Shown: in pieces, positions 33,861 through 38,495 of the stretch | Layout: each line of letters starts with the position of its first letter | Position numbering within the stretch: position 1 is the first letter of the stretch | NCBI GenBank assembly: GCA_036012755.1 | Contig: DASCPX010000009.1 | Coordinates: forward strand, 64,001 to 128,000 | From: Myxococcota bacterium | GTDB taxonomy: Bacteria > Myxococcota_A > UBA796 > CAJQPC01 | Direction: 5' to 3' | Length of the DNA stretch: 64,000 bases | Program-made: the position numbers and the translations under genes | The notes under the pieces: generated by a model | What the model was told of the DNA's origin: nothing | Seen by the model: only the letters and a program-made list of their open reading frames with translations | The model's database searches: none

Positions 33861-34916
33861 CTAACGCACCCTGATGACTCCCGTCAGCGCCACACCTGTC
33901 GCGAGGGCCGTGAAGTCCGGGTCGGTCGGCCAGAACCGGGCGTAGTAGAGACCCTGCTGTCCTTCGTACACGAGCTCGTCACTGCCGGAGGCGACGACCT
34001 CGCCGGGTATGCGGACCAGCTGAAGCTCGACGTCCCCCTCTGAGTGGCCCTCGACCAGGAGCTCGGCGGGGCCATCGATGACCCCGCCGGGGCCGGCGCG
34101 CTGCCGCCTGGTCGATGCTTCGATCCGCAAGGAGACGTCGGGCTCTCCAATGACCACGCGGCCGGCGACGAGGGCGTCGATGGGGAGCTCCCCGTCCAGC
34201 ACCCGCACCCATGTCGTCGGCCAGCCCAGGGGCGGGTTCAGGAAGTCGTCGGGAACCGTCCCGCCCCAGCGATGGCAGTCTGAGCCACCGACCGGGACCA
34301 CCCCGTCGGCGGCTCGGGCCTCCCACTCGGAGACGGACTCGGCGTCCCATGGGTCGAAGCGGGCTCCCCCGTTGTAGACCTCCAGCGCGTCGAAGTCCTC
34401 GCTCGTCCAGTCGTACTCGACCCAGGGCGCGGCGGCGTGAGGGTGCTCGACGATCGCCCACCCGCCCTTGGCGACACACTGTTCCACCGCGTCTTTACCG
34501 CTGACCTCACCAGGCGGTCGGTCGATCCACACCTCGAGGTCGACGAAGGCCCCCTCCAACGGCAGGCAGCCGACGTGGCCAGTCGGCCCTCCGTTTCCCT
34601 CCAGGGATGCGATCGGGCTGATCTCGCTCCCTTCGATCACTCCCTCTGGCCAGGCAACACCTGAGATCTCGGGGCCTTGGTTCGGACAGTCCTCGACGTC
34701 CTCGCAGCCCATCGAGCCCTGGGCGTTGGAGTGGTCGGTGATGAAGAGGAAGTCCAGGCCCGCCTCTTCCATGGCCGGCCCGAGGGCTTCGACGGTGCCG
34801 TTGCCGTCCGTGTCGTTGCTCCCGACGCTGCTGTGCACGTGCAGATCCCCGGCGAGCCACACCCCGTCGAGGGGTGGGACAGAACAAGCCGACAACATCG
34901 TGACCATGGACCCCAT
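33861..34916 (-). CDS. PHP-domain (CehA/McbA-like) metallohydrolase lipoprotein
   Basis: WLAGDLHVHS, ITDH, EHP, LEVYNG, GGSDCH. Confidence 0.85.
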   Translation of the reverse strand: MGSMVTMLSACSVPPLDGVWLAGDLHVHSSVGSNDTDGNGTVEALGPAMEEAGLDFLFITDHSNAQGSMGCEDVEDCPNQGPEISGVAWPEGVIEGSEISPIASLEGNGGPTGHVGCLPLEGAFVDLEVWIDRPPGEVSGKDAVEQCVAKGGWAIVEHPHAAAPWVEYDWTSEDFDALEVYNGGARFDPWDAESVSEWEARAADGVVPVGGSDCHRWGGTVPDDFLNPPLGWPTTWVRVLDGELPIDALVAGRVVIGEPDVSLRIEASTRRQRAGPGGVIDGPAELLVEGHSEGDVELQLVRIPGEVVASGSDELVYEGQQGLYYARFWPTDPDFTALATGVALTGVIRVR

Positions 34917-34952
34917 CGCGTAATGCTACCTTTGCCTCAGTCTGGGAGTCCC

Positions 34953-35612
34953 GTGAAGAGGTTCGTCTTTATTTCGCTGGCCCTTGGAGCGACCGTCGCG
35001 TGCGTCCCCGCACCGCTGGACGTGTCCTTCGACGCGGACGGCGCCGTCGACCTCAACCTGGGCGAGGACCCGGACGAGCAGATCTCCGAGTGGGAGTTCT
35101 ACGATGGCGGCGGCTGGCACAAGGCCGACGGCTGCCAGGACGAGCTCACCGCGACGGGCAACGAGGTGGGCGACGTCACCGCCGACGCCGAGTTCAGCGA
35201 CCAGTTCGGCGACGCCGTACGGCTCTACGACTTCTGCGACCGGGCAGTACTGCTCGTGTCCGGGGCCTTTTGGTGAAGCGCCTGTGTGGCGGAGGCTCCG
35301 TCACTGCAGTCGACCTTCAAGGAGTACGAGGAGGACGGCCTGATCGTCATCCAGATGCTCGCCGAGAACAACAGCAGCTCCACGCCCACGCAAGAGGATC
35401 TGGAGAGCTGGGCCGCGAACTCGGGCCAGACCCATCCGGTCGTCGCTGACGCTGGCTGGGCCGTCAGCAACCGCTTCGAGGTCGACTACGGCATCCCGAC
35501 CTTCTCCCTGCTTGCACCGGGCATGGAGGTCGTGACCGTGGACGACGGGGCATCGGAGAGCGTCATCCCAGACCACCTGCCCTCCGACTTCGAGCTTCCA
35601 GGCCAGGAGTAG
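34953..35612 (+). CDS. Selenocysteine-containing thioredoxin-fold redoxin (TlpA/AhpC-TSA-like) lipoprotein, Sec108
   Basis: GGGAG RBS and GTG; MKRFVFISLALGATVAC; DQFGDAVRLYDFCDRAVLLVSGAFW-TGA-SAC continues in frame to YGIPT...TAG 35612. Confidence 0.85.
35282..35309 (+). promoter_or_regulatory. Candidate bacterial SECIS hairpin
   Basis: CTGT-GTGGCGGA-GGC-TCCGTCAC-T-GCAG stem-loop with a G-first apical loop starting 17 nt after the UGA. Confidence 0.65.
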
Positions 35613-35687
35613 ACACCGGGTCTGACAGCCCTGTGACGTTGCCCCGAGCAGCGTGAGATAGGCTCCCTCGCCGGGAGCCTGTTTTTC

Positions 35688-38495
35688 ATGCTGCAGCTGC
35701 TTTTCCTTGGGTCCGCGCTGGCAGCGGAAGCCGAGCTCATGCCGATGGGACCGCTGATCGCCGACGGCATCACGCCAGCCCGCATCCAGGTGTCCGTGCC
35801 GGGGGCGATGCCCGGAGACAAGGTGAAGCTCAAGCCCTTCGAGGGCACGGCGAGCGGTGGCGCCGTCACAGCCCCCGGGGTCGTCAGCTTCAGCTTCCTC
35901 GCCCCGCGGCGCTACGAAGAGGACGGCTCGAAGGTCCGCGTCATCATCAAGGGCGCCGTCAGCGTCGACCAGACCTTCACCATTCCCCTGGAGCCACCGG
36001 CGAAGTCCGAGCTCGAGCTGTCGTTTACGCCGGAGTCATGGACCGTCGGAGACAAGGGCACCGTCGAGGTCAGCATCGGCGCCACCGGCCAGCATCCCCT
36101 GCCCGCCTCGGCGCGCCCCGTGATGCTGGAGGCGAACATCGGCAAGATCACCGGGCTCAGCGAGGGCGACGACGGCCAGTGGACCGCCACCTGGACGCCC
36201 CCTGCGGTGAAGGTCGCGACCAACGCGCTGTTCACCGCGACGGACCTGTCGTCGCCTGACACGGTCGTCGGCCAGTCCCACTACGCCCTGAAGGTGCAGG
36301 CGCAGCAAGAGGTGAAGGCCGCCAGCGGGAGCCAGAACGTGCTCGTCATCGGGTCGGCGCAGTACGGCCCATCGACCGCCAGCGAGGACGGAAAGGTCGT
36401 CTTCGATGCCCTCCTGGACCCGAGGGTGACCGAGGGCACGCTCCAGTCCGTCGACGAGACCGGCTACCGCAGCGACACGACCGTGCCGCTGGAGCTCGAC
36501 TCGCCGGCCGCAGTCGCCTTCGCACCGCTGCCGAAGATGGTCCCCACCGGCCGCCAGATCGTCGTCCACGTCGCCCTCATGGAGCCAGACGGATCGGCTT
36601 GGAGCAGCGCAGCGCCAAAGATGGAGGGCGCCTCGGAGGCCGAGAGCCTGGGCCGTGGGTGGTTCGCCTTTTCGGCCACGGCCCCCTCCGAGCCCGGGGC
36701 CTGGACCCTCGTCGTCGAGGCGGAGGGAGAGCTCCGGGCCATCCGCAAGCTCACGGTCATCGACGCGGTCCCCGACGTGACGCTCAGCGCCGATCCGGTC
36801 GGCCTCATGCCTGGCAAGAGCGCCTTCTCGGTCACGGCCCACCTCAAGGACGCCGACGGCACCGCTCTCACCAAGCGCAGGCCTGCCTTCGAGGTGGAAG
36901 GGGCCTCGCTCCAGAGCGGGCCAAAGGACAACGGCGACGGCACCTACACGGCCCGGTACTTCGCCCACAAGAGCGCCGACACCGCCAGGGTGAGCGTGCA
37001 CGCCGCTCCGAAGGCGACGGGGCTGGCGGTGGCTCGGCTCTCTCTCTGGCCCATGCAGGGGTCGGTGGCCGCGGACGGCTCGTCCACGACGGAGATCGCC
37101 ATCGTGGCCGAGGACGCCTACGGCATGCCGGTCCCGAACGTCGAGGTCAGCCTGACGACCCCGGTCGGAGACGGTGCGATGAAGCCGACGGCGAAGACGG
37201 ACCGCTACGGCTTCGCCGCGGTCAGCTACCGCACCGGTTCGAGCGTCGGACCCGCGGCGGTCGTGGCAGACGCCAAGGGCATCGTCGGCACGACCGTGCT
37301 CTACCAGCACGCCCCGGGCTCGGATCCGGTCGGCGTGGAGCCCGGAGGATCCGAGACGGACCTGGCACGGGCCCAGGCCTGGCGCTCGGCTCGACCGGCC
37401 ATCCAGGTCGCCAAGATGGGCGCTGATGTCGGTCCGCCGGCCCGGGTCGCGATCACCACGACGCCCTCCTACACGACGCCAGGCGCCGCCATCCTGGTCA
37501 CCGTGCGCGTGCTCGACGAAAACGGCAAGGCCGTGCTCACGTCGAGGCCGAAGGTGAAGGCCACCATCGGCAAGGTCGGCTCGATGACCAACAACGGTGA
37601 CGGCAGCTACAACCTGCCGCTCCAGCTGCCCGCGGGGCAGGACGGCCCCGTGACGCTGACCGCGACCGCCGGGGGGGCGACGGGGAGGCAGGAGCTGCCG
37701 ACGCTGGCCTCGCTCGGGGGCGCGCCGCCACCGACCCAGGACAAGGGAGACAAGGGAAGCGGGAAGAAGGATGACGGGCTCCCGACCGCGGGCAAGAACC
37801 CCAACCGCATGGACCTGCGCAACCAGTCAGCGCGCTTCTACCTGGCCGTCGGCGGCTACAAGTACACGGCCCTTCGGGTGAGGAACGGGGACGAGCCCAG
37901 AATCCCCTCGGAGATCGGCTTCCATCGCAAGGGGACGAGCCCCGTCCCCGGCGCCGGACTGGCCGCCAGCGGCCACCCGAAGGGCAACATGGTCGGCTAC
38001 GACGTGCGCCTCCGCTTCTCCGGGTACACGACGCAGGTCGGCGACGGCCTCTACTACGATGGCCTGCCCTACTTCGTCGGCGCCGTGCGGGCGAAGTTCG
38101 ACCTCGCCAGCGGGCTGGCCGCCTACGGGTCCGCGGGTCTCCACGTCGTCGACGTGCCGATCTACCGCTACAACGACGACCTCGACGACGTCGATCGCCT
38201 CAACAAGATGGTGCCCGGCCTGCGCATCGGCGGCGGCGTGACCTACACCAACCGCTTCGCTCACGCCCAGTTCGAGCTGGCCGAGAGCTTCGGACTCCTG
38301 CCGAAGGTCACGCACACGGGGCTCCTGGTCGAGGGCCGCGTCCCCATCGGCCCGGTGAGCATCGTGGTCTTCGTCGAAGAGGACATCGAGTTCCAGCACA
38401 TGCGCTACTGGGTGGGGACCGGCGACAGCGAGGACCGCGTGCTCATCCGGGGCCGCCAGGCGACGACGCTCTTCGGGGTCGGCGCGGCCTTCTGA
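35688..38495 (+). CDS. Large exported protein with invasin/Ig-like domains and a probable C-terminal outer-membrane beta-barrel
   Basis: Signal peptide; ADG...AEDAYGMPVPN and DNGDGTY/NNGDGSY Ig motifs; amphipathic beta-strand tail ending FGVGAAF. Confidence 0.75.
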   Translation: MLQLLFLGSALAAEAELMPMGPLIADGITPARIQVSVPGAMPGDKVKLKPFEGTASGGAVTAPGVVSFSFLAPRRYEEDGSKVRVIIKGAVSVDQTFTIPLEPPAKSELELSFTPESWTVGDKGTVEVSIGATGQHPLPASARPVMLEANIGKITGLSEGDDGQWTATWTPPAVKVATNALFTATDLSSPDTVVGQSHYALKVQAQQEVKAASGSQNVLVIGSAQYGPSTASEDGKVVFDALLDPRVTEGTLQSVDETGYRSDTTVPLELDSPAAVAFAPLPKMVPTGRQIVVHVALMEPDGSAWSSAAPKMEGASEAESLGRGWFAFSATAPSEPGAWTLVVEAEGELRAIRKLTVIDAVPDVTLSADPVGLMPGKSAFSVTAHLKDADGTALTKRRPAFEVEGASLQSGPKDNGDGTYTARYFAHKSADTARVSVHAAPKATGLAVARLSLWPMQGSVAADGSSTTEIAIVAEDAYGMPVPNVEVSLTTPVGDGAMKPTAKTDRYGFAAVSYRTGSSVGPAAVVADAKGIVGTTVLYQHAPGSDPVGVEPGGSETDLARAQAWRSARPAIQVAKMGADVGPPARVAITTTPSYTTPGAAILVTVRVLDENGKAVLTSRPKVKATIGKVGSMTNNGDGSYNLPLQLPAGQDGPVTLTATAGGATGRQELPTLASLGGAPPPTQDKGDKGSGKKDDGLPTAGKNPNRMDLRNQSARFYLAVGGYKYTALRVRNGDEPRIPSEIGFHRKGTSPVPGAGLAASGHPKGNMVGYDVRLRFSGYTTQVGDGLYYDGLPYFVGAVRAKFDLASGLAAYGSAGLHVVDVPIYRYNDDLDDVDRLNKMVPGLRIGGGVTYTNRFAHAQFELAESFGLLPKVTHTGLLVEGRVPIGPVSIVVFVEEDIEFQHMRYWVGTGDSEDRVLIRGRQATTLFGVGAAF

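Follow-up and report, generated by a model that had tools for sequence, protein, structure and literature searches.

Selenoproteins with selenocysteine (Sec, U) as the first residue of a UxxC motif, set in a peroxiredoxin-like (Prx-like) or TlpA-like domain, are an established kind, with entries in catalogues of marine metagenomes since 2005-2008. The 2005 survey of the Sargasso Sea lists four sequences of a protein described as 'thiol-disulfide isomerase-like' (TlpA-like, cd02966; UxxC) and a 'Prx-like protein UXXC 21' (PMC1088965). The Global Ocean Sampling (GOS) survey lists the marine families 'Prx-like 1' (pfam00578, UxxC), with 225 Sec sequences versus 2,740 cysteine (Cys) homologs, and 'Prx-like 3' (pfam08534) (PMC2398784). 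Repeated Cys-to-Sec conversions in thiol oxidoreductase families were described in a study from 2006. 'Prx-like thiol:disulfide oxidoreductase' selenoproteins (PF00578, UxxC/UxxU) are found in Table 1 of PMC13188914 and in the lists of a 2022 review (PMC9312934), which also hold a 'Redoxin family protein' (UxxC). The subject of the present analysis is a gene at 34953-35612 on the plus strand of a 64,000-nucleotide stretch of Myxococcota DNA, hereafter called the window. It is very probably a genuine selenoprotein gene, and encodes a predicted redoxin lipoprotein with a U-S-A-C active site. Current understanding is not overturned by this gene; it is a further piece of evidence that selenium is used by uncultured marine Myxococcota not only in the cytoplasm but also in the cell envelope, by means of exported, lipid-anchored redox enzymes.

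With the Prx-like UxxC selenoproteins the window protein shares the AhpC-TSA domain, Sec as the first residue of UxxC, the marine setting, and the logic of Sec/Cys pairs and bacterial selenocysteine insertion sequence (bSECIS) elements. The likeness to this family, for which the reviews name a Geobacter entry among the type sequences, is one of domain, motif and description. In their accessible parts the Prx-like descriptions are silent on a lipoprotein anchor, on TSP3-type repeats, on a radiation in Myxococcota and on several SECIS registers; 'lipoprotein', 'periplasm' and 'signal peptide' occur 0 times in PMC2398784, and the first two of these words 0 times in PMC13188914. A literature search on selenoproteins in Myxococcota gave nothing relevant by title or abstract, while one on selenocysteine together with bacterial lipoprotein signal peptides gave only the Haft preprint on selenoproteins, which concerns other families. 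The 'thiol-disulfide isomerase-like' selenoproteins, compared by description, have the TlpA-like thioredoxin fold, the UxxC motif and the marine metagenomic origin in common with the window redoxin, and may be its own family or a sister to it.

Among the Cys-based redoxins, Bacillus subtilis ResA, Bradyrhizobium TlpA and CcmG have a comparable site of the W-C-x-x-C type at the start of helix 1 and a cis-Pro loop. They are also tethered to the membrane outside the cytoplasm, as is predicted for the window protein, and a gene for a possible reductant of the DsbD/CcdA type is present in the source genome. The window protein differs from them in having Sec instead of the nucleophilic Cys and in its predicted lipid anchor, where theirs is a transmembrane helix, and the locus has no cytochrome c maturation context. 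The lipoprotein-anchored TlpA-like redoxins Etrx1 and Etrx2 of Streptococcus pneumoniae, found among the sequence and fold matches (4hqs, 2yp6, 4hqz), are similar in their mode of anchoring; these are, however, Cys-based and come from a Gram-positive host. Etrx1 and Etrx2 are linked to MsrAB. A ResA-like fold using Sec is also known from the UGC-containing TlpA or 'ResA-like WAxxUGC' selenoproteins of NF041054, which carry Sec elsewhere in the motif (W-A-x-x-U-G-C versus W-U-S-A-C). Membership of the window protein in NF041054 was ruled out by its score of 19.7 bits against a cut-off of 300, and by the different motif.

The gene is read in one frame from GTG 34953 to TAG 35610-35612 (219 codons), and TGA 35274-35276 is the sole in-frame stop. 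When this TGA is read as U, the product runs ...AVLLVSGAFW-[TGA]-SACVAEAPSLQ...VDYGIPTFSLLAPG... and also contains ...YGIPTFSLL..., with Sec108 and Cys111 among its 219 residues. The original prediction had described an open reading frame (ORF) that ends with GAFW at TGA 35274-35276, a frame that goes on to TAG 35612 and a 219-residue product with Sec108/Cys111; the same was obtained when the sequence was re-read and translated. ORF calling with translation table 11 gives two pieces at this locus, 34677..35276 and 35286..35612. The orthologs have GGAGG or GAGG spaced from their starts as in the window gene. The features of the gene and its immediate flanks are as follows:

34944..34948, plus strand: Shine-Dalgarno-like GGGAG, 4 nt 5' of the GTG start, read from the sequence
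34953..35612, plus strand: complete selenoprotein gene (very probable) for a redoxin lipoprotein with a U-S-A-C active site, 219 codons plus TAG
34953..35003, plus strand: signal peptide with lipobox ..ATVA-C17, Cys17 being the predicted lipidated first mature residue (pattern and orthologs)
35133..35135, plus strand: codon for Cys61, invariant (homolog alignment)
35235..35237, plus strand: codon for Cys95 in a DFC motif, invariant (homolog alignment)
35274..35276, plus strand: in-frame TGA, the predicted codon for Sec108 (frame reading and homolog alignments)
35283..35285, plus strand: codon for Cys111, the resolving Cys of U-x-x-C, invariant (frame reading and homolog alignment)
35283..35308, plus strand: SECIS-like hairpin with core stem 35286-35293/35297-35304 and loop GGC 35294-35296 (folding and comparison)
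35496..35498, plus strand: codon for Pro182 (G-I-P) at the cis-Pro position of the thioredoxin fold, invariant (alignment including ResA)
35660..35686, plus strand: terminator-like hairpin AGGCUCCC/GGGAGCCU and then UUUUU, located 48 nt 3' of the stop codon (by eye and folding)

No local error accounts for the TGA at 35274-35276. Two separate studies (X1 and X2), either of which may represent the source sample, have contigs that reproduce positions 34900-35700 with 0 differences, and 10 distinct proteins from other assemblies end at ...AFW. Among the contigs from runs X8 and X9, none spans the TGA with at least 31 letters on each side.

Homologs were found in all of the 61 genomes searched (the source genome and 60 relatives), and most of the best matches contain exactly one in-frame TGA. 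A hand count of the listed rows for these genomes gave 44 without a stop, one with TAG only and about 100 with one or two TGA; a few homologs have a second in-frame TGA in this list. The column of the TGA is the same in 17 close homolog loci, within (A/G)(A/G)FW-U-xxC. The 32 named loci come from uncultured metagenome-assembled genomes, mostly titled Myxococcota, Deltaproteobacteria or Proteobacteria, and 28 of them fit the motif filter, 22 with TGA and six with TGT/TGC. After another 60 regions had been added, 98 distinct family members were obtained when all loci were analysed with tblastn anchoring. Their active-site column holds TGA in 67 cases, all from related uncultured marine Myxococcota, TGC/TGT in 27 and Asp/Ser in four, where the ratio 67:27 is not a frequency since the regions were chosen partly by a TGA flag. 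In each of the TGA forms, the codon stands first in U-x-x-C. Invariant residues are found on both sides of it (C61, C95, W107, U108, C111, E138, W153, D166, P182, P189, G190 and P210), and in every Sec form that is not cut by the end of the locus, 96-115 codons follow the TGA without a further stop.

The Sec form of the protein is missing from the protein databases. A near-length search of 5.8 billion proteins gave five matches, none of them a full-length Sec form; four (P0002-P0005) have Cys at the Sec column, within WCGAC, WCGPC, WCAAC and WCVSC, while P0006 falls outside the alignment. Together with the 27 TGC/TGT members, these four provide the Cys-column homologs looked for as a check on the Sec assignment. 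A search at short length returned 19 matches, namely ten N-terminal halves, all ending ...AFW, and nine C-terminal pieces from an internal start codon. This bears out the expectation that gene callers break the gene in two. Contigs of 64-210 kb carry several of the short matches, and 'hypothetical protein' is the name given to one. The window gene and dozens of homologs are stored publicly as pairs of 'hypothetical proteins' of about 107 residues, and since no NCBIfam model reaches its cut-off with the redoxin protein, the gene will go on being missed.

The source genome (6.73 Mb in 250 contigs, 68.4% GC) contains a complete selenocysteine machinery with all components above curated cut-offs: a tRNA-Sec (scoring 62.7 bits, where the gathering score is 47; called tRNA-SeC with anticodon TCA by ARAGORN), SelA (497 bits), SelB (291 bits, a protein of 601 residues with SelB-wing_2 and SelB-wing_3 domains) and SelD (340 bits). 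The selD gene (contig C70:290568-291446, minus strand, locus L018) has an in-frame TGA of its own, and SelD is probably itself a selenoprotein. A Sec-containing SelD is a common arrangement. A second member of the redoxin family is encoded on the minus strand of contig C27, with TGA 349268-349270 in the active-site column (AAW-U-GVC), TSP3-type repeats, a lipobox-like N-terminus and a hairpin 3' of the TGA; this is probably another unannotated selenoprotein. Seven further paralogs in the same genome have Cys in the active-site column. Tandem pairs of Sec-form paralogs are seen in the genomes of several relatives (L088, L090, L097, L098 and L101).

Directly 3' of the TGA, the sequence can form a hairpin with a core stem of 8 bp (35286-35293/35297-35304, -10.5 kcal/mol) that extends to 35283-35308 by three more pairs past a one-base bulge. 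The apical loop GGC (35294-35296) starts 17 nt after the UGA. A hairpin with a loop starting with G at this distance had been predicted at 35282-35309; it was found, with the slightly different extent given here. According to the legend to Fig. 2 of PMC13188914, the bSECIS model has a loop of 3-9 nt with a G in its first two positions, an upper stem of 4-16 bp, 16-37 nt between UGA and loop and a folding energy of at most -7.5 kcal/mol. Checked against this model, the window hairpin agrees with all of the published constraints (3-nt loop GGC, 8 bp, 17 nt, -10.5 kcal/mol). When the strict model was restricted to contiguous stems, 43 of the 67 Sec forms passed versus two of the 27 Cys forms (Fisher p 2.5e-7, a kind of value that overstates the evidence here because the sequences are related), and with looser thresholds a hairpin is found in 57 of the 67 and six of the 27, respectively. 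The overall folding energy downstream of the codon is the same in Sec and Cys forms (p 0.45), and the enrichment of hairpins is hence specific and no effect of GC content.

More than one register is used by the hairpins of the family: the distance from the UGA to the start of the loop is 17, 21, 24 or 29 nt, and the loops read GGC/GUC, GGU, GGUCU or GGA; 36 of the 43 passing loops start with GG. Covariation was calculated from an ungapped alignment of the 17 close homologs, 15 of them distinct. For columns 27-32/36-41, 78% of the cells are paired and the covariation is 0.484 versus a shuffled mean of 0.255, a value reached in 0 of 500 shuffles, with slid controls at or below 0.202. Within the genus of the window, the hairpin is kept through two-sided changes from G-C to C-G and from G-U to U-G. 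The presence of at least four registers within one protein family suggests that the element has been rebuilt repeatedly in the same coding segment.

The read-through protein is an AhpC-TSA/Redoxin domain protein with a ResA/TlpA-like fold, and neither ResA nor TlpA proper. In Pfam, AhpC-TSA (PF00578) matches residues 72-178 with 40 bits (cut-off 26) and Redoxin (PF08534) scores 26.9 bits against a cut-off of 26.6; both matches span the TGA. The best match in NCBIfam is the ResA subfamily with 39 bits, where the cut-off is 170, and the TlpA model gives 23.2 against 230. Among solved structures the best relative is ResA of B. subtilis (E 1.2e-6), in which the first Cys of the CEPC motif aligns with U108 and the conserved Pro of the PLPTT segment with Pro182. 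An AlphaFold2 model built from 16 aligned sequences has pLDDT >85 over residues 61-210 and a helix (109-128) that starts directly after U108, while residues 1-53 are disordered. With this model, the top Foldseek matches are ResA structures (E 3.6e-10, target TM 0.80; 4nmu_D has a target TM of 0.85), followed by other TlpA-like redoxins including the pneumococcal lipoprotein Etrx2 and SdbA. Both the redox motif of the TlpA/AhpC-TSA type, here W-U-x-x-C, and the identification of IP as the thioredoxin cis-Pro thus agree with what the original prediction had read from the letters alone. The invariant Cys61 and Cys95 may form a structural disulfide.

The N-terminus of the window protein (MKRFVFISLALGATVAC) fits the pattern of a lipoprotein signal. 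In all of the 12 orthologs with a complete N-terminus, the chain begins with a basic residue, which is followed by a hydrophobic stretch and then by the Cys of a lipobox (..LVAC, ..VGC or ..AGC), and C17 is nearly invariant in the alignment. In the larger set the lipobox pattern is found in 52 of the 67 Sec forms (in five others the upstream frame extends beyond the end of the locus, and in ten the filter finds none) and in 18 of the 27 Cys forms. By pattern matching, the lipoprotein signal claimed for the window protein is therefore conserved among the orthologs. Many relatives have DxDGDG repeats (TSP3-type, PF18884) between anchor and domain, where the window protein has a short, acidic linker.

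It seems likely, though this is held a little less firmly than the nature of the gene, that the protein acquires Sec and works as a disulfide reductase anchored in the cell envelope. Translation would start at GTG 34953, and at UGA 35274 SelB carrying Sec-tRNA(Sec) would bind the downstream hairpin (loop GGC, 17 nt), leading to insertion of selenocysteine and no termination. The signal peptide would direct the chain through the Sec translocon and Cys17 would be lipidated, leaving the mature protein tethered to the membrane by an acidic, disordered linker of about 35 residues, with the TlpA/ResA-like domain in the cell envelope. The active site, W107-U108-S109-A110-C111, is predicted to lie at the N-terminus of helix 1, where Sec108 would be the attacking nucleophile and Cys111 would resolve the mixed selenenylsulfide. 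The most likely targets that the enzyme would reduce are the disulfides of envelope proteins, or oxidised sulfur of another kind in them, and its re-reduction would be performed by a membrane electron transporter of the DsbD/CcdA type; the source genome encodes a DsbD_TM protein (66 bits) on contig C147.

Other explanations of the locus have to be considered. Gene callers read the TGA as a true stop, and a GTG at 35286 opens an ORF of 108 residues, so that the locus might be a pseudogene, a nonsense allele, an assembly error or two small proteins. Such a stop would, however, cut a thioredoxin fold at its catalytic residue, and 67 distinct homologs, which come from many genomes, share the TGA in exactly this active-site column, flanked by conserved sequence on either side. 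As the genome has the Sec machinery, the TGA forms are enriched in SECIS-type hairpins and the contigs of two studies agree, a true stop is considered highly improbable. Even less credence can be given to a read-through in which UGA is decoded as Trp or Cys, whether through a suppressor or near-cognate tRNA or through a changed code; nothing specific speaks for it. Four orthologs use TGA as an ordinary stop, the homologs have Cys and not Trp in the column, and the genome has a dedicated tRNA-Sec together with SelA, SelB and SelD. More weight is due to the suggestion that the gene is a selenoprotein gene as described, while its product is an envelope thiol peroxidase similar to glutathione peroxidases or peroxiredoxins, which would form a selenenic acid resolved by Cys111. 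AhpC-TSA is the best Pfam family, GSHPx gives a weak match (E 0.11), the peroxiredoxins Bcp and AhpE are among the fold matches, Sec is the classical peroxidatic residue and reviews name the family 'Prx-like'. The peroxidatic motif, stated as PxxxT/SxxC(U) in PMC13188914, is nevertheless absent, since the residues before U108, LLVSGAFW, include neither a Pro at -7 nor a Thr/Ser at -3. The W-U-x-x-C site is as in TlpA and ResA, and ResA/TlpA-like proteins are the best matches in both sequence and fold, which makes a peroxidase unlikely.

Several observations count against the preferred reading of an envelope selenoprotein with disulfide reductase activity, besides the relatedness of the sequences mentioned above. 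A share of the Sec forms, 24 of 67, fail the strict model with contiguous stems. Folded as a single sequence, the 67-nt segment has a z of -0.69, and 46 of 200 shuffles fold equally well or better; the hairpin is significant only through the comparison of homologs, because the fold alone is at the level of chance in DNA of 68% GC. The register used in the window is weakly supported among the 15 distinct close homologs (49% of cells paired, covariation 0.142 versus 0.077, the value being reached in 7 of 500 shuffles), and most homologs have hairpins in other registers. Raw synonymous and non-synonymous counts around the TGA, in comparison with four orthologs, were uninformative at about 50% identity. 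No RNA runs are listed for the stretch. The lipoprotein signal is assigned by pattern matching only. As for function, the redoxin is not ResA itself, since its score with the ResA model is far below the cut-off, and the neighbouring genes, for an aminotransferase and a Cys-free Ig-like protein, offer no clue to a redox partner or substrate.

In a quick tree of the 98 domains, built by maximum likelihood with all rows included, Sec and Cys forms interleave. At least eight changes are needed, of which the starred branches alone force three to four, and the window gene belongs to a starred clade whose members are 11 Sec forms and a single degenerate one. At position -2 relative to the active-site column, Phe (Phe106 in the window, 35268-35270) is found in 58 of the 67 Sec forms, mostly as TTC TGG TGA, and in none of the 27 Cys forms, which have M/E/A/Q/G/D/T. 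An association between Phe(-2) and Sec is not established by these counts, because only three well-supported independent contrasts are available (p about 0.25). The repeated switches between Sec and Cys, together with the several SECIS registers, form a natural experiment on what changes in protein and mRNA when a catalytic Cys becomes Sec. A wider and rather speculative proposal is that marine Myxococcota of the window's order possess a selenium redox system in the envelope, built on a radiation of lipid-anchored TlpA-like redoxins. These would often carry calcium-binding repeats of the TSP3 type and would exist as several Sec paralogs per genome, some in tandem pairs. Their SECIS would have been rebuilt in at least four registers, Sec and Cys would have been exchanged repeatedly, and Phe(-2) would be a Sec-specific determinant of catalysis or UGA decoding. 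At four loci (L124-L127) the family member has Asp or Ser where the others have Sec/Cys, and it misses the second Cys; on the tree these four fall within groups of Sec forms, and they look like redox-dead derivatives.

The terminator-like hairpin at 35660-35686 has a folding energy of -28.5 kcal/mol (z = -6.29, with 0 of 200 shuffles equally good). A scan of 34600-35900 with consensus promoter and terminator patterns called no site, including at this hairpin, and a permissive Rfam scan of 34000-36500 found nothing at the SECIS-like hairpin and no bacterial SECIS family among its matches. The gene that follows (35688-38495, plus strand) encodes 935 residues, none of them Cys, with the Ig-like domains Invasin_D3 and Big_1. 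Together with the upstream aminotransferase gene it flanks the orthologs in several genera, and a Big_1/Invasin_D3 gene also adjoins two of the Cys-form homologs. Between the aminotransferase gene and the redoxin gene, the window contains another gene on the minus strand (33861-34916). It encodes 351 residues with a lipobox-like N-terminus (..MLSAC), and the name CehA/McbA family metallohydrolase is given to some of its database homologs. None of the flanks fetched from the relatives contains this gene, and in them the distance between the aminotransferase and redoxin genes is about 100 nt; it is a real gene, and its position reflects a local insertion or rearrangement.

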